DNA from: Kiritimatiellia bacterium
Lineage (GTDB): Bacteria; Verrucomicrobiota; Kiritimatiellia; RFP12; UBA1067
Direction: 5' to 3'
NCBI GenBank assembly: GCA_017450695.1
Contig: JAFSTA010000084.1
Location: 34,474 to 98,473 of the forward strand
DNA: 64,000 nt
Positions 45,421-62,696 of this stretch are shown in pieces (position 1 is the first letter of the stretch; the number at the start of each line of letters is the position of its first letter). Made by a program: the position numbers and the translations under genes. A model generated the notes under the pieces. It worked only from the letters and a program-made list of their open reading frames with translations. It was not told the DNA's origin and did not search any database.

Positions 45421-45799
45421 AAGTTGTGCTTGAAAAGACAACAGCTTCTGCTATGATAAGAGCGTTCTTTGGCGGTTGACCGCCGAGGAAAGACAAAATC
45501 CGGAAACTGACCGGGGTCGTCAAGCGACGTATGGAAGCCGACACCCCTCTCCACCTCCGGAGGTTAAGATTGTGGCATCAACGCTACATCGTCGTTCAGC
45601 AGAAATACGACCAATGTTTTTAATCCAGAACGACGTGTAAGTGATGATGCGTCCGTAAGGGCGCATTATCTTTATATGTATTCTGGATGGGCCTTTGGTC
45701 GGGCTTCTGCTGAGTGCATGAAAGGAAATGCGCTCTTTTTATGTATGTGACCAGGGGGGGTCCACGGCATTCGCAAGCGCACTATGCTGGAGGGGCGGG

Positions 45800-47871
45800 A
45801 TGGTTGCCGCCGGAATGGACATGGCGCAAAAAAGTTTGATCGGCGAACTGCCGAAGATTCTGGAAGAGGGTAAACGCGAGGCAGGAAGAATTCTGGAGCG
45901 ACTCTCGGACAACGTGAAAGTCGGACTTCAAACAAACGAGCTGGTACTCCCCGCGAAAGATGTGGACGGTCTCTTCAAGGGGCAGATGCCGACACTGGGT
46001 TCTTCGACAGGATTTACAGGATTAACAGGATTTGAGGCGGCCTCCCCTATGCCCGAAAATCCTGTCAAGAACAGTCCCTGGATCAACCGACTCATCTACG
46101 GAGACAACCTCCTCGTGATCCAGGCGTTGCTGGCGGGTGATGAAAAGACAAGTCTCCCTTCCTTGCGCGGCAAGGTCGATCTCGTCTATATCGATCCGCC
46201 CTTCGACTCCAAGGCCGACTACCGCACGAAAATCCACTTGCCCGGCACGGACATCTCGCAGAAACCGACTGTCATCGAGCAGTTCGCCTACTCCGACACG
46301 TGGAAGGACGGAACGGCAAGCTACCTCCGCATGATCTGCCCGCGCCTCATCCTCCTCCAGGAACTCCTCGCCGACACTGGATCCATCTACGTTCACCTCG
46401 ACTGGCACGTCGGCCACTACGTCAAAATCCTGATGGATGAGATTTTCGGGAAGGAGAATTTCAGGAACGAGATAGTGTGGTATTACAATAATAAAATGAG
46501 TGGTGCGGTTGTGAGTCATGATTTTGTATGTGAGCATGACACATTGTTTTTCTACTGCAAAACAAAGCAAAACCATTTTAATGAAATAAGGGAAGATAGG
46601 GATATACCAGTGAAACAAAGCAAGCGGGTGAAGATCGACGGGAAAAATATGAGGGCAAGAGATGCTGATGGAAACATGATATATGAAATCTCATTTGACA
46701 AGAAAGTCAAAGATGTTTGGACTATTCCATATATCGCATCAACCTCTAAAGAGCGTGTGGACTATACCACCCAGAAACCCGAGGCCTTGTTGGAGCGCAT
46801 CATCAAGGCATCATCGAACGAGGGAGATTTGGTGCTGGATGTCTTCGCGGGGAGCGGGACGACAGCGGCGGTGGCGGAACGGCTGGGGCGACGTTGGATT
46901 TCGGTGGATATCGGGAAGCCGTCGGCGTTGATCCAGCGAAAACGCTTCATCGACAATGAGGTGAAGCCATTCCTCTACCAGTCGGTCGGCGACTACCAGA
47001 AGGAGGCCTTCGGTGCATCGCGGCTGTTCCGTCGGATCGGCGACTTGTGTGAGGTCGTACTGAAACTCTACGGCGCGGAACCGTTTCCGGTGGAAAACTG
47101 CCCGACGCGCAACGCGGGGCAGATTCGCGAGTCGCGGACGCTCGTCCTGGTCGATAGCCCGAACAAACTCACGAATGCGGCAAGCGTGAAACGGGCGGCG
47201 GAAGCAAAGAACACGGCACTCGGCGGCGGCTGGTCGAAGGTGGTTCTCTTGGGCTGGAATTTCGCGTGGGACATTTCACAGGCAGCGCAGATGTACAAGG
47301 ACGTCGAGGTACTGGTGATTCCGCCAGATCTGATGGACGCGCTGAAAAAGCGCGGTTTTGCAGATCTCGCGGCAAACGGCAAGGTTCGTTTCTCCTCACT
47401 GCAGTATCTGTCGCTCAAGGATGTGCGGAGAGAGAGAGGATCGCATCTCACGCAGAGGCGCGGAGAGGTGGGGAATGCAAGGAAATTAACGGATTGGAGG
47501 TCTCGGCGGACTCTGCGCCTCAGCGTGAGGAAAATATGGAACGCATCATTGTCGAACTGGGCAACTACGTGCTGTTGTCACCGGACAACATTCCTTTAGA
47601 CGATAAGGACAAGGAGATCTTGGCGAAAATCGCGAAGGAAGACCCGCTGGCACTCATCGAATACTGGAGCGTCGATCCGGACTACAACGGCGAAACATTC
47701 CGCAGTCTCTGGCAGGACTACCGTGAGAACACGGGGAATGACGACGATCCCGACCATTGCGTATTCACGGCGGAGATTGTCGTGCCGAAAAAGCCGAAAG
47801 GTACTCGTGTCGTATGCGTAAAGGCTGTCGATGTCTTCGGCTTCGAGAGCGTGGCAACGGTGAGAGTGTAA
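45800..47871 (+). CDS. mod: Type III restriction-modification Mod subunit (beta-class N6-adenine/N4-cytosine DNA methyltransferase), frameshifted near 47427..47440
   Basis: Motif IV DPPF in [12 protein letters not shown]. AdoMet motif [15 protein letters not shown]. The reading frame switches from +2 (ORF 45728..47599) to +1 (ORF 47266..47871) at a (GA)5 run, ggAGAGAGAGAGga. The C-terminus continues in the other frame (..[20 protein letters not shown]). Central 46440..46760 is markedly AT-rich, a probable target-recognition domain. Confidence 0.7.
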
Positions 47872-47883
47872 GGAGAACTGGCA

Positions 47884-50830
47884 ATGGCGAAGAAAAGCAC
47901 GGCAATGAACACAGGACGGATTCCGTTGGAGTTCGCGAAACGAGTAAGCGAAGCAGCGGAGGCGGCATACGGAAACGGTTCGATGGCGCACGCGGTCTCA
48001 CCCGTCACGCGAGAACTGCTGAAATACTGGTTCGAGGAACCGTTCACGGATCGTCCGCTCAACTTCCACGAAGGACAGAAGCGGGCTATCCTGAACGCCA
48101 TCTACCTGCACGAGGTCATCGGCGCGGCGAACATGACGGATGCCTGGGCGAAAATCGGTCCAGAGCTACTGGAAACGGAGAACGGCGCGGTGATGGCGGA
48201 ACTCTCCAAAGACAAATACGCCTACCCGAAATACTGCGTGAAGATGGCAACGGGAACGGGGAAGACATGGGTAATGCATGCACTTCTGATCTGGCAGTAC
48301 CTGAACGCACGATATCCCGTCAAGGGGGCGGTGACGCCGTCCCCGTCGTTTGTGAAAAACTTCCTCTTCGTGGCACCGGGGCTGATCGTCTATGAGCGGC
48401 TGCTTGACGCCTTTTGCGGCAAGCGAATCGACGGCGGCGAGATGCGGGATTTCACGACGAGCGACATCAAAAGCTGCGAGTCACTTTTCGTGCCTCCGCA
48501 GTATCGTGATGCGCTGTACGCTTTCCTCCAAAACTCACTGGTACGCAAGGAGGATTTCGGTCGCAAAGTGACAGGTGACGGAACGTTGGCGGTCATGAAC
48601 TGGCATACGTTTCTGGGCGAGGAGGAAGGTTCGCCTTCCGAGGATTCGGGGGCGGAGTCCCCATCCGTTTGCACCGATGACGGCAAGGGAATTCTCGACG
48701 AGCTCCTTCCCGCGAAGCCGGGAATAGCGGCTGGTAACGCCCTGGAGTCGCTGGACGCCTCATTCCTGCGCGGCGGAAGACTTGATTTCCTAAAGGACTT
48801 GCCCGATCTGATGCTCGTAAACGACGAGGCGCACCATGTGCATGGAGGAACAAAAGACGAGGAAGAAGTCAAGTGGCAACAGGGAATCGACGCGTTGGCG
48901 AAAGGGAAACGGTTCATTCAGCTCGACTTCTCGGCGACACCATACGAACCATCCGGGAGCGGGCGCAACGCGCAACAAGCGCGAGGACTATTTTCCGCAC
49001 GTAATGGTCGATTACGACCTCCCCGCCGCAATCCGGGCGGGGCTTGTGAAGACCATCATCATCGACGAACGCAAGGAGTTGGCGAACGAGCTTGTCGATC
49101 TGGACTACAAAGCCGTCCGGGACGGGCGGCACGTAGTGGGACTGAGCGATGGACAACGGCTGATGTTACGGGCCGGGTTGGCAAAACTCCGGTATCTCGA
49201 AAAGGAGTTCGCATCGTTAGATGAAGCGAAGCGGCCGAAGATGATGGTGGTCTGCGAGGACACGGGCGTAACACCGCTCGTCTCCGATTTTCTGCGAGAG
49301 GAAGGACTTTCCGACGACGACATTCTGACGGTTGACAGTAACAGGCAGGGAGATGTCGGAGAGAAGGAATGGAACAAGATGAAGGGAAAACTCTTCGCGG
49401 TTGACAAGCGCGAAAAGCCACGCGTCATCATCTCCGTTCTCATGCTCCGTGAGGGATTCGATGTCAACAACATCTGCGTCATCGTGCCACTCCGAGCATC
49501 CAACGCGCAGATTCTGTTGGAGCAGACACTAGGACGCGGGCTACGCCTCATGTGGCGGGAACCGGAATACAGAGAAACCAAGGATAAGGCGAGGGATCAA
49601 TTAATCGTAGAAAAGGTCGAGCCTTGCGCGGTGTTAGACTTCCTTTACATCATCGAGCATCCGGCGTTCAAGGAATTCTACGACAATCTCGTTGCACAGG
49701 GACTCGTTGGAACGCAGAAAACGAAAGACAGAGACGGTGGCGGGAAAGACGACCTCGTTCATTCCGTCCTCAAGGAAGACTACGAGAATTGGGACATCTT
49801 TTGGCCGCTGGTGCGGAGAGAAAGCGAGGAAATCCTATCTGATGAAGCCCTTCCCCAAGAAGGCTTGGAACCTTTCACACTCTATCCGCTGTCGCGGTTA
49901 CGTGAAATCTTCGCGAGACCGGGCGAGGTATTCGTGGGGAAAGAACTACTTGTCCGGACGACATTCGGCGAGTACCGGGTTCATGCGAATCTCTTCAATG
50001 CCACATGCTACAACGAGTACATTCAAGGCATCGTCGATTCGATTTCTCGCCGATTCATGCGTATTGCAGGAAAGCAGACAAGTGCAATGCCCGCCTTGCA
50101 GATACACTTAGCAAAGATTGCCGCGGTGGTGGACAGGTTCATTCGGGAACGGCTGTTCAATGAGCCGTTCGACCCATTTAGCGGAAATGACTGGAAGATT
50201 CTCCTCTGTCGCAATGGAACCATCACCAACCATATCGTCAAGCAGGTGGGTGAACTGGTTTATTGGATTGAAAACAAAACGCTCAAGACTCAAGCAGATG
50301 TCGATCGACTTTGGTTCTCCAGCGTGCGCGACTTCGTCGTTCGGAAAGGTGCGTCGCTTGAACTGACGAAAACGATCTACACGCGCACCGGTTATCCGAC
50401 GAAGGGGGGCGGGCTGGAGAAGGATTTTATGGAGTTCATCGACCGCGACGGCGGAGTGGAGAGGTTCGTCAAAGTCAACGAGGCAAAACACATCTTCGCA
50501 CGGATTGCCTATCTTCGCACAGATGGACTGATGGGCGAGTACATTCCCGATTTCCTTGTCGTGACGGAAAAACACGTCTGGCTGGTGGAAACAAAGGCTG
50601 AAAAGGACAAGGATGATGGAAACGTGCAGGCAAAGCGAAACGCAACAGTACAGTGGTGCAAGGGTATCAATGCTCTGGAGAAAGAAGATCGAATGAACCG
50701 AACATGGAGTTATCTGCTTCTGACGGACAAGGATTTCTATGCCTATCAAGATGGAAATGCCACATTCCATGATTTGTGCAGGTTTTCTGAAGTCACGGAG
50801 TCGGGGTTAAAGGGCGAGTTTACGTTCTGA
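47884..50830 (+). CDS. res: Type III restriction-modification Res subunit (SF2 helicase/endonuclease), frameshifted near 48945..48985
   Basis: Walker A ATGTGKTWV, DEAH box LMLVNDEAHHV, motif III FSATP in frame +1 (ORF 47884..49224). The rest (KREDYFPHVMVDYDLPAAIRAGLVKT ... to 50830) is in frame +2 (ORF 48836..50830). Starts 10 nt after the mod stop. Confidence 0.7.
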
Positions 50831-51259: not shown

Positions 51260-53347
51260 TCATGCGTTCACGCTTGTTCCGAAGAGAAGCAAGCCGAGTG
51301 AGGAGACGGTCGCTTCTTTCGCGATGGCGTCGGGTTCCCTCCCCGCCTTTCGCAATGCGGTCGCTGTCGGGTTTCCGAGAACGACAACCTTCTTTCCGGT
51401 CAACCGATCCGCCCCGAATTGGTTCAGGAAGGATTCGACTGCCGAAGCGCTTGCGAAAAATACGGCATCGAATCTCGGCAGGTTGTCATACCGAACCTCT
51501 TCGTTGCGATAGAGGATGCAGTCGGTAACGGTTGCGCCTCGTTCACGCAGTGCGCCCGCCACGCTCTCCCCCGCCTTCTCGGAACGGAAACGTAAAATCC
51601 GCTGTCCGTTCCAATAGCCGTCTGACAATGTGGCGATGAGTCCTTCCGCGCTAAAGGATTCCTTCGGCATCCAGTCGGCGTGCAAGCCCGCCGTTTCCAG
51701 TTCCGACGCGCATCCGGGACCACAAACTATCAATTTCGGAACCTGGCGCAGATCGAACGATTCGGATCGCAACAGTTCCAGAAAGATCCGTACCGCGCTT
51801 GGGGAAGTGAGCACAACCCAGTCGTACGAATCCAGCGAACGGATCTCCTCACGCGCACGGGATTCGGCCCGGAGACGGATCAACGGACGCGCAAGCGGGA
51901 CGCCTCCCAGATCGCGTACCGAAAGTTCGGCTTTGGGCAGAATGGATTCGCTACAGGTCAACAGCACGCGCATCCCGTCCAGACCACCCGCTGCGCTTCG
52001 ATATCCGCCCGCGGCTGGAGAACCGATCAGGATCAGTCCCGGAGCCTCTTCCCCTTCACTCGGATGCAAGGTAGCCAAAGTTCCGCGAACGATTTTCTCC
52101 TCCTCGCCGCCTGCCTGATACACGATGGCGGCAGGTGTCTCCGGTGACCACCCCTCACCGATCAGACGACGCGCGACGTCCTCCGCGAGCTTGACGGACA
52201 TGAAGAGAACGAGCGGGAAACGACTCCGTTCCTCGATCCCGACATCCGCATTCCCGCCCCCTTCCGCACGAGGCGTCATCACGGTGAACCCGCGTGACTC
52301 GCCGCGTTTGGTCAAGAGCATCCCCGTGCCGGTCGTGGCCGCAACCAGCGCGCTGACACCGGGAAGCACACGATACGGGATCTGTAATTCATCGAGCCTG
52401 CCGATCTCTTCGGACAAACGCCCGAAGAGGCCGGGATCGCCGCCCTTCAACCGAACGACGCGAAGCCCCTGCCGCGCGTACTCCGCGATCAGCTCCGTAA
52501 TCTCGGACTGCGGCATCGAATGTCCCCCGCAACGCTTCCCCACAAAGACTGCCTGTGCCTGCGGCGGCAACTCGCGCAACAACCGTTCGTCCATCAGCTG
52601 GTCGTACAGGCAGACATCCGCCTGACGCAGCTCTTTCAGTCCGTCCCATGTGATCAGTCCGGCGGAACCGACCCCCGCGCCAACGAAACGAACCGCCTTG
52701 ACGAAGCAAGAACGAAGCCGCATCCATTCCGGGTTCCCTTTGCGGAAGGTGACTGCCAACCGGCCTTGCGCCAGAGGCGTCGGCAACCGGTCAAGCGGAA
52801 TCCATTCTGTGATGCGCTCGGAAAGCCCCAGTCGTTTCAGTGCGGCGCCCGCCATAATCACGACATCGAAATCCCCCGCGTCGAGTTGTGCAATCCGAGA
52901 AGGAATGCTGCCGCGAATGGGACGGATCACGGCATCGGGGAACTCGGAATTGACGTATGCTTCCCGGCGGTCGCTGCTAACGCCGATGACCGGGCGCGAC
53001 AACGAGGCGCGGGATTCCCCGGAACGCAGCACAAGGCAATCGCGCGCGTCCTCGTACCAAGGGAGCCAGAACCAATCAAGCCGCGGATTCGGCAACGGGT
53101 AGGAAAGGTCCTTCGCGCTGTGGACGGCAAGGTCGATCATACCTGATAAAACCGCCTCGTCCAAATCACGCGAAAAGAAATCGGCCGGGGCGGTACGGAG
53201 ACTGCTCGCCAAATCACGGTCCCCCGGCGAAGAGAACGGGATCGTTTGGAAAGAGAGGAACGGAAAGAGACCGATGATGCGGTTCAAGGCATCTTGCGTC
53301 TGCGCCAGAGACAACGCGCTTCCGCGCGTGCCGACTTTCCACTGCAT
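51260..53347 (-). CDS. Tetrapyrrole triple fusion: HemC-like (hydroxymethylbilane synthase domains 1-2 only) + uroporphyrinogen-III C-methyltransferase (CobA/SUMT) + uroporphyrinogen-III synthase (HemD)
   Basis: N-terminal WKVGTRGSALSLAQT...AVHSAKDL...VIMAGAALKRLGL...PLAQGRLAV (HemC domains 1-2; the domain-3 cofactor Cys region is absent). Middle VRFVGAGVGSAGLITWDGL...VVRLKGGDPGLFGR...LPGVSA (SUMT). C-terminal DWVVLTSPSAVR...AVFFASASAVE (HemD). Confidence 0.75.
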   Translation of the reverse strand: MQWKVGTRGSALSLAQTQDALNRIIGLFPFLSFQTIPFSSPGDRDLASSLRTAPADFFSRDLDEAVLSGMIDLAVHSAKDLSYPLPNPRLDWFWLPWYEDARDCLVLRSGESRASLSRPVIGVSSDRREAYVNSEFPDAVIRPIRGSIPSRIAQLDAGDFDVVIMAGAALKRLGLSERITEWIPLDRLPTPLAQGRLAVTFRKGNPEWMRLRSCFVKAVRFVGAGVGSAGLITWDGLKELRQADVCLYDQLMDERLLRELPPQAQAVFVGKRCGGHSMPQSEITELIAEYARQGLRVVRLKGGDPGLFGRLSEEIGRLDELQIPYRVLPGVSALVAATTGTGMLLTKRGESRGFTVMTPRAEGGGNADVGIEERSRFPLVLFMSVKLAEDVARRLIGEGWSPETPAAIVYQAGGEEEKIVRGTLATLHPSEGEEAPGLILIGSPAAGGYRSAAGGLDGMRVLLTCSESILPKAELSVRDLGGVPLARPLIRLRAESRAREEIRSLDSYDWVVLTSPSAVRIFLELLRSESFDLRQVPKLIVCGPGCASELETAGLHADWMPKESFSAEGLIATLSDGYWNGQRILRFRSEKAGESVAGALRERGATVTDCILYRNEEVRYDNLPRFDAVFFASASAVESFLNQFGADRLTGKKVVVLGNPTATALRKAGREPDAIAKEATVSSLGLLLFGTSVNA

Positions 53348-53454
53348 GGGTCACCTCCTCAGATTGGCGTTGCCGAAAGTATGGGGAAAAGAAAAAGGGA
53401 GACACGGATTTTGAAACAAAATTCGTGTCCCCCACAAAACAGGAACGAGAGGAA

Positions 53455-53664
53455 CTACGCCATCTCGCGCATCAGACGACGGGAGCGATTGCGGATACGG
53501 GCACGCGCGGACTTCTTGCGCGCCTTTTCGCACGGCTTCTCGTAGTAGCGGTTGTTCCGCAACTGCTTGAGCAGCCCTTCCTTATCCATGATTTTCTTCA
53601 GACGCTTGAGCGCGCGCTCAACCGTCTCACCCTTCTTCAACCGGATCTGGATCACGTCATTCAC
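53455..53664 (-). CDS. rpsU: 30S ribosomal protein S21
   Basis: 69 aa, MNDVIQIRLKKGETVERALKRLKKIMDKEGLLKQLRNNRYYEKPCEKARKKSARA, a close match to the bS21 consensus. Confidence 0.9.
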   Translation of the reverse strand: MNDVIQIRLKKGETVERALKRLKKIMDKEGLLKQLRNNRYYEKPCEKARKKSARARIRNRSRRLMREMA

Positions 53665-53837: not shown

Positions 53838-54311
53838 ATGCCCGAGACCGCCAACAAGATTTTATTCTGTACAGATTTTTCGCAAAATGCGCTTCAGTCG
53901 TTTTCCTATGCGATTCGCGCCACTAAGGAGATTCCCGACGCGCAGCTGGTTCTCTTCCACACGATGCCGGAACCAGACGCGCAATTCTGGAAAGGGTACA
54001 TCTTGGATTCGGATGACGCCATGACGGAGATGAAGCAAAAGATCCACGAGAAGATCGATGCGGAGTATCGCCCGCTCCTGCCACCAGACTGCCCGATGGA
54101 AGTCGTGCTGACCACCGGCGACGCACCGGAGGAGATTCTGCATTACGCGAACCGGGAGAATGTCCGGATGATCGTACTCGGCAGACAAGGGAGCGGCATG
54201 ATCTCCCAATGGCTGATGGGGAATGTCACAGCCCGCGTCGTCCGCAAGGCGAACTGCCCCGTCCTCGTCGTCCCCTTCTCCTTCATCGAAAAACAGAAGC
54301 AGGCCAAATGA
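53838..54311 (+). CDS. Universal stress protein (UspA family)
   Basis: ILFCTDFSQNA...LVLFHTM and C-terminal MIVLGRQGSGMISQWLMGNVTARVVRKANCPVLVVP (Usp ATP-binding tail). AGGAGG RBS upstream. Stop overlaps the next start (ATGA). Confidence 0.75.
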   Translation: MPETANKILFCTDFSQNALQSFSYAIRATKEIPDAQLVLFHTMPEPDAQFWKGYILDSDDAMTEMKQKIHEKIDAEYRPLLPPDCPMEVVLTTGDAPEEILHYANRENVRMIVLGRQGSGMISQWLMGNVTARVVRKANCPVLVVPFSFIEKQKQAK

Positions 54312-55501
54312 TCGGAATCTCGAAGCTTTATCTAGGTACCGTCGAAGTATCCGACCCGTTGCGGTACGGACGTGCGTCCGGCAAACTTCCGAGTCACCTG
54401 CTCCAGTTCTCGAAGGACAAGAAACCTGTCGTCGTGTGGAATGTCACTTCGCGCTGCAACCTGAAATGCGAACACTGTTACGCCGCAGTCCCGAAAGTCC
54501 AGCCGGAGTTGACCGCCGAACAGGCGTTTGCGGTTTTGGACGATCTCGCCGGGTTCGGAGTTCCTGTTGTGTTGTTCTCCGGTGGCGAGCCATTCACCCG
54601 TCCCGATATCCTCGACCTCGCCCGTTATGCGGCCTCGAAGAAGTTACGCGTCGTGTTCTCGACCAACGGGACGCTGATCACGCGCGAAGTCGCGGAGGAA
54701 ATCCAGAAGATCGGCGTTTCGTATGTCGGCATCAGCATCGACGGCGGGCAAGCGGTTCACGACCGTTTCCGTCGCATGGAAGGAGCCTTCCAAGCCGCGC
54801 TCAACGGGATCCGGAACTGCCGCGACGCAGGAATCAAGATCGGTCTCCGCGTCACGATCACTCGTGACAACGTGCAGGAAATCCCGGCGGTGTTCGACCT
54901 CATGGAAACGGAGAAGGTGCCGCGCCTCTGCCTCTATCACCTTGTCTATTGCGGACGCGGCGCGGAAATCGCCGACCATGACCTCACGCCTGAAGAACGT
55001 CGCGCCACGGTGGATCTCATCATCGACCGGACAAAACGCCTGCACGACCTCGGATTCCAGACCGAAGTGTTGACAGTCGATAACCATTGCGACGGTCCCT
55101 ATCTCTATCTGCGGATGTTGCGCGAGGCAAACCCGCGCGCCGGCGATGTATTGTCGCTCCTCCAGATGAACGGCGGCAACAGCACGGGACTCGGGATCGG
55201 CTGCATCAGCTGGGACGGAACCGTCTATCCCGACCAGTTCTGGCGCAACAAACCGCAGGGCAACGTGCTGGAGAAACCATTCAGTGAAATCTGGGGAAAA
55301 CCGCCGGAGGATTCCCTCCTCTGGCAGTTGCGCCACCGGAAGGAACGGATCACCGGACGTTGCGCGAACTGCCGCTTCCATTCCGTCTGCAACGGCAATT
55401 TCCGCGCACGTGCGGAAGCCGCCACGGGTGACATCTGGGCAAGTGACCCGACATGCTATCTAACGGATGAAGAAATCCGAGAACAAGCAACAACCATGTA
55501 A
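54308..55501 (+). CDS. Radical SAM / SPASM-domain enzyme of the NirJ/AhbC/AhbD (heme d1 / alternative heme biosynthesis) family
   Basis: CX3CX2C cluster VVWNVTSRCNLKCEHCY, FSGGEP, STNGTLI, SPASM-like GIGCISWDGTVYPDQFW and CANCRFHSVCNGNFRARAEA, C-terminal DPTCYL. This set matches my recollection of NirJ/Ahb-type proteins rather than anSME. Confidence 0.6.
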   Translation: MIGISKLYLGTVEVSDPLRYGRASGKLPSHLLQFSKDKKPVVVWNVTSRCNLKCEHCYAAVPKVQPELTAEQAFAVLDDLAGFGVPVVLFSGGEPFTRPDILDLARYAASKKLRVVFSTNGTLITREVAEEIQKIGVSYVGISIDGGQAVHDRFRRMEGAFQAALNGIRNCRDAGIKIGLRVTITRDNVQEIPAVFDLMETEKVPRLCLYHLVYCGRGAEIADHDLTPEERRATVDLIIDRTKRLHDLGFQTEVLTVDNHCDGPYLYLRMLREANPRAGDVLSLLQMNGGNSTGLGIGCISWDGTVYPDQFWRNKPQGNVLEKPFSEIWGKPPEDSLLWQLRHRKERITGRCANCRFHSVCNGNFRARAEAATGDIWASDPTCYLTDEEIREQATTM

Positions 55502-61467: not shown

Positions 61468-62187
61468 TCAGACAGATCTCTTCGCATAGCGGAAGGATGC
61501 CTTGCCCCAGTTCAGCAACTTTTCCGTAACGGCCTGGGTGTAGGCGGCACGACGATTCTGGTAGTCCAGATAATAGGCGTGCTCCCAGACATCGACACAC
61601 AGCAACGGCGTCACGCCTTTCTCCGTCAAAGGGGTGTCCGCATTGGAGGTTGATTCAATCACCAGTTTATTGTCGCGCACCAGCAGCCAAGCCCAACCGC
61701 AACCGAACCGCTTGTTCGCCGACTCGGCCAAGAGCCGCGCGCAATTTTCCACGCTTCCAAACGTCTTCGACAACACCTCGCCCAACGCCTTCGACGGCTT
61801 GCCACCGCTTCCGGCCGGCGCCAGTGAATCCCAGTAGAACGTGTGGTTCCAGATCTGCGCGGCGTTGTTGAAGAAGGGGGCCGCATTGTCGGCCTTGGAA
61901 GCCACAATGATTTCCTCCAGCGTCATACCCGCGTATTTCGATCCCGGCAACATCGCATTCAACGCGGCGACATAACCGGTATGGTGCTTGCCATAGTGAA
62001 AACCGATCGTTTCCGCTGAAATGATCGGCGCGAGCGAATTCTCGGCAAAAGGAAGTTTCGGCAACAAGATGATACGGTTCGCCGGTTTCGGCGCCGTCTC
62101 CTGCTTCGTCGCATCAGCACCAACCACGCTCGCAGCTGCCGCCACGGTCGCCGTCTCGATAAAGTTCCGTCTTGAGATTGTATCCAT
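61468..62187 (-). CDS. Fe/Mn-family superoxide dismutase with twin-arginine signal peptide (periplasmic)
   Basis: Tat motif SRRNFIETATVAAAASVVGA. SOD motifs LPKLPFAENSLAPIISAETIGFHYGKHH and DVWEHAYYLDYQNRRAAY. Start set at MDTIS (62187); the upstream ATG at 62283 is less likely. Confidence 0.85.
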   Translation of the reverse strand: MDTISRRNFIETATVAAAASVVGADATKQETAPKPANRIILLPKLPFAENSLAPIISAETIGFHYGKHHTGYVAALNAMLPGSKYAGMTLEEIIVASKADNAAPFFNNAAQIWNHTFYWDSLAPAGSGGKPSKALGEVLSKTFGSVENCARLLAESANKRFGCGWAWLLVRDNKLVIESTSNADTPLTEKGVTPLLCVDVWEHAYYLDYQNRRAAYTQAVTEKLLNWGKASFRYAKRSV

Positions 62188-62696
62188 AACACCACTCTCC
62201 TTTTCTGGCAACTCGTCACAAGTCCGATTCCAATTGCCGTAACGCCAATTAGCATAGCGTTTTCCATCCCCGTCCTCAACCACAAAAATCAGTTTTCTCA
62301 GATTTGGGGCGCATCACCGTTTTTCACCCATGCTTGAGTGGAATTTGGACACAACCACAGACAACTTTGTTCTGTCGCCCCTTCAGGGCTTGGTGGATGA
62401 TTGTGCCGTTGCCGGGGTTGTGCTTCGCTTACCCCGTCTGTACAGTTCACGCCCTTTCAGGGCTTTCCTCCACCACCTCGAAGACCGATCGCGTAAGGAC
62501 AGTCGGCGCACGACAGCCGACAGCATTCCACCTAACCACCCAACTAAACCGCAGACCTACACGGACGCGCCTCGCTGACGCTTGCGCATTTCCAAACCAG
62601 GGCGGGCGTGAGCGATGCCTGTCTGTGAACGTCCGTGGTTCCTTTTCCTACCCCCCAACCCGCCAGCGGCTTCTCAGCTGGCGGCGACAGCCGCGC

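Follow-up and report, generated by a model that had tools for sequence, protein, structure and literature searches.

A HemC module lacking domain 3, fused to CobA and HemD in Kiritimatiellia, is a candidate hydroxymethylbilane synthase

Hydroxymethylbilane synthase (HMBS, HemC) is presented in reviews as a 35-kDa three-domain enzyme, and its self-made, thioether-linked dipyrromethane as a feature that marks tetrapyrrole biosynthesis throughout. In the E. coli enzyme, domain 1 (residues 1–99 and 200–217) and domain 2 (105–193) are accompanied by domain 3 (222–313), and the cofactor is carried by Cys242 (PMC3945110), to which it is described as thioether-linked (PMC7242693; PMC13564367). Here we analyse a gene in a 64,000-nucleotide stretch of contig JAFSTA010000084.1 from a Kiritimatiellia bacterium (hereafter the window), which encodes a HemC module without domain 3 followed by CobA (uroporphyrinogen-III C-methyltransferase, SUMT) and HemD (uroporphyrinogen-III synthase). 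Bifunctional CobA-HemD fusions have been described for Desulfovibrio vulgaris and clostridia, and we found such fusions in many phyla; they share with the window protein the order of CobA and then HemD, as well as the domain boundaries, and in most of these genomes hemC lies directly upstream. There, however, hemC is separate and full-length with domain 3, most other phyla having two adjacent genes, full-length hemC and then cobA-hemD.

We propose that the N-terminal module is probably the working HMBS of its lineage, forming part of a trifunctional enzyme that would lead from porphobilinogen to precorrin-2. The argument combines three observations: the short form is the sole HemC in otherwise complete operons, its pyrrole-binding pocket is retained, and the module is conserved to the same degree as CobA. 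On these grounds we infer that it is catalytically active and the sole HMBS of its genome.

Domain layout and pyrrole pocket of the fusion protein

The fusion gene is one unbroken open reading frame (ORF) of 695 residues on the minus strand of the window (Table 1). A Pfam search of the protein assigned PF01379 to residues 4–207 (E = 3e-42, profile positions 2–204 of 207), PF00590 (tetrapyrrole methylase) to residues 221–427 and PF02602 (HemD/HEM4) to residues 477–684 (E = 2e-45, 155 bits, profile positions 7–229 of 231, a full-length domain), bearing out the order of HemC domains 1–2, CobA and HemD put forward in a sequence-only reading of this DNA. Residues 218–444 passed the SUMT cutoffs of NF004790 (202.4 bits, cutoff 198) and TIGR01469 (191.6 bits, cutoff 185), and Foldseek matched the CobA part to CysG, SUMT and NirE. 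The HemD part reached no NCBIfam HemD equivalog cutoff, which is usual for such a divergent family. The motifs quoted in that reading were approximately right, the actual strings being KVGTRGSALSLAQ, AVHSAKDL, RGSIPSRIAQL, IMAGAALKRLGL and AQGRLAV.

The claimed relationship of the N-terminal part to HemC was supported by structure as well as by the PF01379 match. An AlphaFold model of the fusion protein (pLDDT 85, pTM 0.82) superposed on the E. coli structures 1PDA and 1AH5 over 208 columns with a root-mean-square deviation of 2.1 Å (Foldseek), preserving the two-lobed fold of domains 1–2 at ~30% identity to the canonical enzyme, and alignment to PDB HMBS chains placed residues 4–203 on E. coli 7–207. 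Domains 1 and 2 are both present, and the module ends at the 218–221 hinge (E. coli numbering). A helix of the module joins CobA at residue 218 without a linker, two residues past the hinge; since CobA begins there, the fusion has no room for domain 3.

Searches for domain 3 agreed with this boundary. PF03900, the Pfam family of HemC domain 3, had no match in the fusion protein, and TIGR00212 (hemC) was covered at positions 2–209 of 293. We also built a domain-3 hidden Markov model (HMM) from 18 canonical HemCs, for which controls scored 1e-14 to 1e-29. With this model domain 3 was absent (E > 1) from the six-frame translation of the window and from 15 related Kiritimatiellia loci, as well as from six further short-HemC loci of Kiritimatiellia (L084), Planctomycetota (L085–L087) and Chlamydiota (L088–L089), loci being taken with flanks of ±6 to 10 kb. 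The module contains no counterpart of Cys242, and the cofactor turn that bears this residue in the canonical enzyme is missing along with E. coli residues 222–313. The module thus stops where the sequence-only reading had placed its end, before domain 3.

All 17 checked HMBS active-site and cofactor-pocket positions are retained in the window protein (R8, Q16, D43, F58, S77, K79, D80, S124, S125, R127, R128, R145, G146, R151, R172, Q194 and G195), and 15 of the 17 are invariant among 120 fusion homologues. Among the 17, D80 corresponds to the catalytic Asp (D84 in E. coli); S124, S125, R127 and R128 line the cofactor pocket, whose two serines are Ser128 and Ser129 in E. coli; and R8, Q16, R145, R151, R172 and Q194 contact the substrate and the C2 ring. 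In E. coli numbering, D84, K83, S81, R131, R132, R149, R155, R176, Q198 and Q19 were found in 120/120 fusion homologues, while R11 (R8 of the window protein) was present in ~97% of the Kiritimatiellia fusion family. The retention of substrate-binding Arg and Asp residues, which had been singled out for checking, therefore extends to the catalytic Asp and to all Arg, Ser and Gln residues of the pocket that the module shares with canonical HMBS. Within the fusion family the HemC module and CobA have almost equal mean pairwise identities (68.8% and 69.1%), and HemD has a lower one (60.3%); the module is as constrained as CobA and more so than HemD. Set against canonical HMBS, the fusion protein lacks two defining features, domain 3 and Cys242, and has the fold and the pocket.

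A frameshift or assembly error hiding domain 3, or a recent deletion that left a dead domain behind, might produce a protein of this kind, and nearby in the window a type III restriction gene does seem to be split into several ORFs. However, an identical protein was recovered from independently assembled contigs, which excludes an assembly or frameshift artefact, and a Kiritimatiellae metagenome-assembled genome (MAG) encodes a protein with 100% identity. HemC passes seamlessly into CobA at a conserved junction, the architecture is kept at 48–61% identity in more than 120 protein clusters, the constraint on the module equals that on CobA, and the loss of domain 3 appears to predate the split of three phyla (see below). 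This explanation, to which we gave almost no weight, is refuted by the assembly, conservation and tree results.

The short-HemC subfamily

The distribution of the three-part architecture, a further point raised by the sequence-only reading, proved to be broad. Across Kiritimatiellia, proteins of ~700 residues with these three Pfam domains make up more than 120 clusters, 54–61% identical to the window protein; the cultured Pontiellaceae B1224 has such a protein, as does a 6.1-Mb chromosome. Scanning a single genome per species gave 14 fusion loci (L001–L014). Database names for such proteins are "hydroxymethylbilane synthase" or "uroporphyrinogen-III C-methyltransferase". To place the module itself, residues 1–216 were searched against 1.84 billion representative proteins and the matches sorted by our own domain HMMs. 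The matches were ~57–65 Kiritimatiellia-type fusions, 22 proteins of ~700 residues with the short HemC at the C-terminus and several stand-alone proteins of 216–243 residues; canonical three-domain HemCs appeared only from about rank 98.

The proteins with a C-terminal short HemC come from Planctomycetota, including Brocadiia, and consist of NAD_binding_7 (SirC), GlutR_N (HemA) and PF01379 (for example P0202, P0242 and P0284). Their short HemC belongs to the subfamily of the window protein but is attached to the product of the gene preceding it, and the protein ends ~12 residues past the module. Stand-alone short HemCs (1763 matches) belong to Chlamydiales, Rhabdochlamydiaceae and some MAGs labelled Verrucomicrobia, score 224–252 bits on NF002202/PRK01066 (241 positions, cutoff 251) and keep the catalytic and pocket residues in 115–120 of 120 sequences. 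The chlamydial form resembles the window module (~43% identity) in lacking domain 3, in its lid signature, in its pocket and in its position in the tree. It differs in being a stand-alone protein of ~220–240 residues encoded beside a separate hemD, in a setting of the protoporphyrin-type route (hemE, hemF and hemY nearby), and the window module, with 129.9 bits on NF002202, is not the chlamydial equivalog.

The three short groups have derived residues in common, most of them in the lid (E. coli 40–63). Where canonical HMBS has GGKGLF(V/T)KELE the subfamily of the window protein has DFF(S/T)RDLD, and canonical GDxx has become GDRD. Common to the three groups are PGDRD (E. coli V47R, I48D) and DFFTRDLD in place of KGLFxKELE, and further derived residues are found in HSAKD (M82A) and at K158Q. 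In the window protein the signature reads P41-G-D-R-D45, D56-F-F-S-R-D-L-D63, A78 and Q154; its residues occur at frequencies of 0.8–1.0 in each of the three groups, and canonical HemCs differ. In neighbour-joining trees of 208 columns, 98 of 100 bootstraps separated the short forms from the canonical HemCs, with long-branch effects possible.

Judged from alignment and tree, short HemC is a separate, domain-3-less subfamily in three phyla of the Planctomycetes–Verrucomicrobia–Chlamydiae (PVC) group, namely Chlamydiota, Planctomycetota and Kiritimatiellia. The bootstrap split together with the common derived lid residues indicates that the loss of domain 3 is old and maintained, predating the split of the three phyla. 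Because the short forms cluster apart from canonical HemCs, the window gene would be an already-short HemC fused to CobA-HemD, with no recent deletion. We had considered a recent loss of domain 3 from an adjacent pair of hemC and cobA-hemD, and rejected it because in the tree the module joins the short forms of Chlamydiota and Planctomycetota.

Consecutive enzymes of this pathway have also been fused with domain 3 in place. Full-length HemC-CobA-HemD ORFs, in the same order as the window protein, were found in Blautia (L022, 3812–6301, 830 residues), a Eubacteriales MAG (L025, 9974–12379, 802 residues) and a Treponema MAG (L072, 1776–4274, 833 residues), and the HemC-HemD fusions P0225 and P0245 likewise join consecutive enzymes. 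Unlike the window protein, all of these keep domain 3 with its GGC cysteine motif and fall in the canonical HemC clade, so that the three-enzyme fusion arose independently in the full-length ORFs. The three-step fusion is in itself logical; the surprising part is a widespread candidate HMBS without the cofactor-bearing domain.

Hem operons and neighbouring genes

In Kiritimatiellia loci L002–L008, [SirC-HemA], [HemC'-CobA-HemD], hemB and hemL (HemC' and hemC' being the short form) are contiguous on one strand, with ahbC 5' of the operon in L002, L006 and L007, and in L084 and L081 SirC-HemA lies upstream of the fusion gene. Planctomycetota share the order sirC-hemA, hemC', cobA-hemD, hemB, hemL, which in L085–L087 takes the form of cysH, sirohaem sulfite reductase, [SirC-HemA-HemC'], [CobA-HemD], hemB and hemL. 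Chlamydiota have rnc, radA, hemC' and hemD, with the genes of the later steps nearby. The Kiritimatiellia and Planctomycetota operons cover the whole path that leads from Glu-tRNA to precorrin-2 or sirohydrochlorin. In the loci examined from all three phyla, no HemC other than the short form was present. Since the short HemC is fused upstream, fused downstream or free in different phyla, it behaves as a self-contained unit, and CobA does not take the place of domain 3.

These operons bear on an alternative in which the module is non-catalytic, binding porphobilinogen or hydroxymethylbilane for delivery to HemD and CobA or sensing flux, while a canonical HemC elsewhere performs the chemistry. 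The sequence-only reading had leaned this way, treating the module as an odd truncation with a binding, channelling or regulatory role. Such a role would fit the missing domain 3 and Cys242, the lack of a conserved cysteine in short HemCs and a score below the TIGR00212 cutoff, and a pure binding domain would keep the pocket residues too. Yet the short form is the sole HemC of otherwise complete hem operons in two phyla, the chlamydial form occupies the expected place of hemC adjoining hemD, and catalytic D84 and K83 are invariant. In Planctomycetota and Chlamydiota, moreover, the short form is not fused to HemD, so that a role as an appendage of HemD and CobA is not general. To our knowledge, chlamydial genomes carry one hemC. 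We consider the non-catalytic module unlikely, and the age of the subfamily, the intact pocket, the conservation and the operons speak against the view of a mere truncation. Channelling is not supported as a sole role; it may hold in addition to catalysis, three consecutive enzymes being fused.

Split enzymes are common, and the textbook mechanism could be squared with the conserved pocket if a separate small protein contributed domain 3 and its cofactor cysteine in trans. The domain-3 HMM, however, found no such domain in the window, in the 15 Kiritimatiellia loci or in the six further short-HemC loci, and no domain-3 gene was present in any hem operon examined. A split HMBS thus appears very improbable.

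Two observations concern other genes of these operons. First, a SirC-like NAD_binding_7 domain is fused before HemA in L081 (3788–5260), L084 (8409–9905), L085 (8001–10145) and L087 (8001–10133). These SirC-HemA proteins gave no match to PF00745 (GlutR dimerisation) in a search in which canonical HemAs did match; both HemA and HemC of the PVC operon appear to be without their usual C-terminal domains. Second, in Pontiellaceae B1224 (L084, 137–7596) the hem genes adjoin genes for ResB and CcsA (system II cytochrome c biogenesis) and for NrfH-like or multihaem cytochromes. Cytochrome genes beside hem genes indicate a real haem demand in such fermentative anaerobes.

In the window the hem operon is dispersed, the fusion gene following rpsU, with which it is possibly co-transcribed, and ahbC being the sole other tetrapyrrole gene (Table 1). 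Neither hemA, hemB, hemL nor a second ahb-like radical SAM gene was found in the 64 kb, and tblastn revealed no second hemC there, in line with the sequence-only reading. The ahbC gene lies 961 bp from the fusion gene in divergent orientation and scores 622.6 bits on TIGR04546 over positions 1–390 of 390, just below the cutoff of 650. Its proximity fits a sirohaem-dependent haem route consuming precorrin-2. A universal stress protein gene (53838–54311, plus strand) shares 4 nt with the start of ahbC, an arrangement that points to co-transcription of these two genes; the pair runs divergently from rpsU and the fusion gene.

Table 1. Positions in the window of the fusion gene, its domains and adjacent elements
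Feature	Position	Strand	Basis or remark
HemC-short/CobA (SUMT)/HemD fusion, whole gene, 695 aa	51260..53347	-	ORF listing and three Pfam domains
HemC-short module, aa 1-215 (E. coli HMBS 4-219)	52703..53347	-	PF01379, PDB alignment, Foldseek
CobA/SUMT (uroporphyrinogen-III C-methyltransferase) domain, aa 218-445	52013..52696	-	NF004790, TIGR01469, PF00590, Foldseek
HemD (uroporphyrinogen-III synthase) domain, aa 457-690	51278..51979	-	PF02602, several NCBIfam HemD models
Shine-Dalgarno GGAGG, 6 nt 5' of ATG at 53347	53354..53358	-	sequence inspection
rpsU (ribosomal protein S21)	53455..53664	-	directly 5' of fusion gene; gene call, PF01165
sigma-70-like site TTGACT-17-TATACT	53720-53692	-	sequence
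ahbC (12,18-didecarboxysirohaem deacetylase, radical SAM/SPASM)	54308..55501	+	397-aa gene call, TIGR04546

Two further features of the window are recorded here. A type III restriction-modification locus (45728–50830) contains an N6/N4 DNA methylase gene that looks intact (45728–47599) and a Res helicase/endonuclease split into overlapping ORFs (47884–49224 and 48836–50830), which public gene calls show as several pieces; Res is probably either a pseudogene with a frameshift or subject to phase variation. An Fe-type superoxide dismutase is encoded at 61468–62283 on the minus strand with an N-terminal twin-arginine signal, suggesting a periplasmic enzyme; the host is probably an anaerobe.

Chain anchoring and the proposed reaction

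Several points weigh against the short form as a working HMBS. Textbook HMBS chemistry requires a dipyrromethane thioether on Cys242 of domain 3 (PMC7242693; PMC3945110). All HMBS structures found in a PDB search are three-domain, none being of a short form. Our literature searches yielded no activity data on short HemC and no paper on a domain-3-less HMBS, on chlamydial short HemC or on a HemC'-CobA-HemD fusion. By profile, the partial match to TIGR00212 scored 147.9 bits, below the cutoff of 164, and our own HMM of domains 1–2 gave the module 143 bits, compared to 217–322 for canonical HemCs. Lastly, no cysteine is conserved across the short-HemC subfamily: 25 of 120 stand-alone forms have neither candidate cysteine, P0418, a complete stand-alone member of 238 residues, has no cysteine at all, and positions 104, 214 and 232 are all without cysteine in 43 of 65 diverse fusion representatives. 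On the other side, the chlamydial short form is already represented at NCBI by an HMBS equivalog model of 241 positions, NF002202.

Candidate anchors were found within individual groups. A cysteine at the position of E. coli 218 occurs in 94 of 120 stand-alone forms (78%), with Ser in 12, and in the window protein (C214), while most Kiritimatiellia lack it; planctomycete forms have one at the position of E. coli 107 in 20/22. Among close Kiritimatiellia homologues C232 is present in 118/120, the exceptions being the window protein and its sister P0002, both of which carry C104 and C214. Three candidates were rejected as general anchors. The exchange of C232 for C104 and C214 within the fusion is a single evolutionary event, and the broader set of 65 includes the 43 without any of the three. 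C542, borne by HemD, is invariant in close homologues but is Ala or Ile in planctomycete and chlamydial HemDs and occurs in 33 of the 65 diverse fusions. C246, found in 100% of close homologues and 78% of the broad set, is part of the CobA beta-strand ADVCLYD, where the SUMT Asp follows three residues later, and is probably a core residue. With no conserved cysteine, one cysteine-free member and no common cysteine in the partner HemD, a fixed thioether anchor for the whole subfamily is unlikely.

Independently of anchoring, the Kiritimatiellia fusions have cysteines at 246 and 542, and often at 232, 273 and 465, where other CobA-HemD fusions have Val, Ile or Ala, and the CobA strand of many diverse members reads C(D/E)VCLYD, which contains a CxxC motif (residues 243/246). 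A redox or metal-binding role for these cysteines is possible.

In the reaction sequence that we favour, the short HemC would convert porphobilinogen to hydroxymethylbilane, the C-terminal HemD would convert this to uroporphyrinogen III, and the central CobA/SUMT would methylate the latter to precorrin-2, which would feed sirohaem and, via AhbC and partners, haem. The subfamily appears to have lost domain 3 and Cys242 and remodelled its lid (PGDRD ... DFFTRDLD) while keeping the whole pyrrole-binding pocket. Since residues known solely for holding the cofactor rings are retained, pyrroles presumably still occupy the conserved pocket of R127, R128, S125 and K79; more speculatively, the growing chain would do so without a fixed thioether. 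We prefer a chain that is held non-covalently or that begins on a cleavable bond, which might be an ester with the lid aspartate D45 or D56; lineage-specific cysteines, here C104 and C214, might serve as anchors instead.

A wider proposal, which we hold only tentatively and judge rather doubtful, is that short HemC is a mechanistically new HMBS, without domain 3 and without the thioether dipyrromethane primer, and the sole HMBS of Chlamydiota, many Planctomycetota and Kiritimatiellia. The chain would then lie non-covalently in the pocket or start from a hydrolysable bond, for instance an ester with a lid aspartate specific to the subfamily. If this is true, the "universal" dipyrromethane cofactor is not universal.

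A large, conserved subfamily with neither the cofactor domain nor a conserved cysteine occupies the expected position of HMBS, including in chlamydial pathogens, and if short HemCs are active, chain priming and release must differ from those of the canonical enzyme. This would bear on enzyme evolution, on pathway annotation, where HMM cutoffs miss some members, and perhaps on ways to inhibit chlamydiae specifically. The fusion of Kiritimatiellia would in turn be a natural single polypeptide leading from porphobilinogen to precorrin-2, of interest for substrate channelling and for the engineering of sirohaem, B12 and haem pathways.

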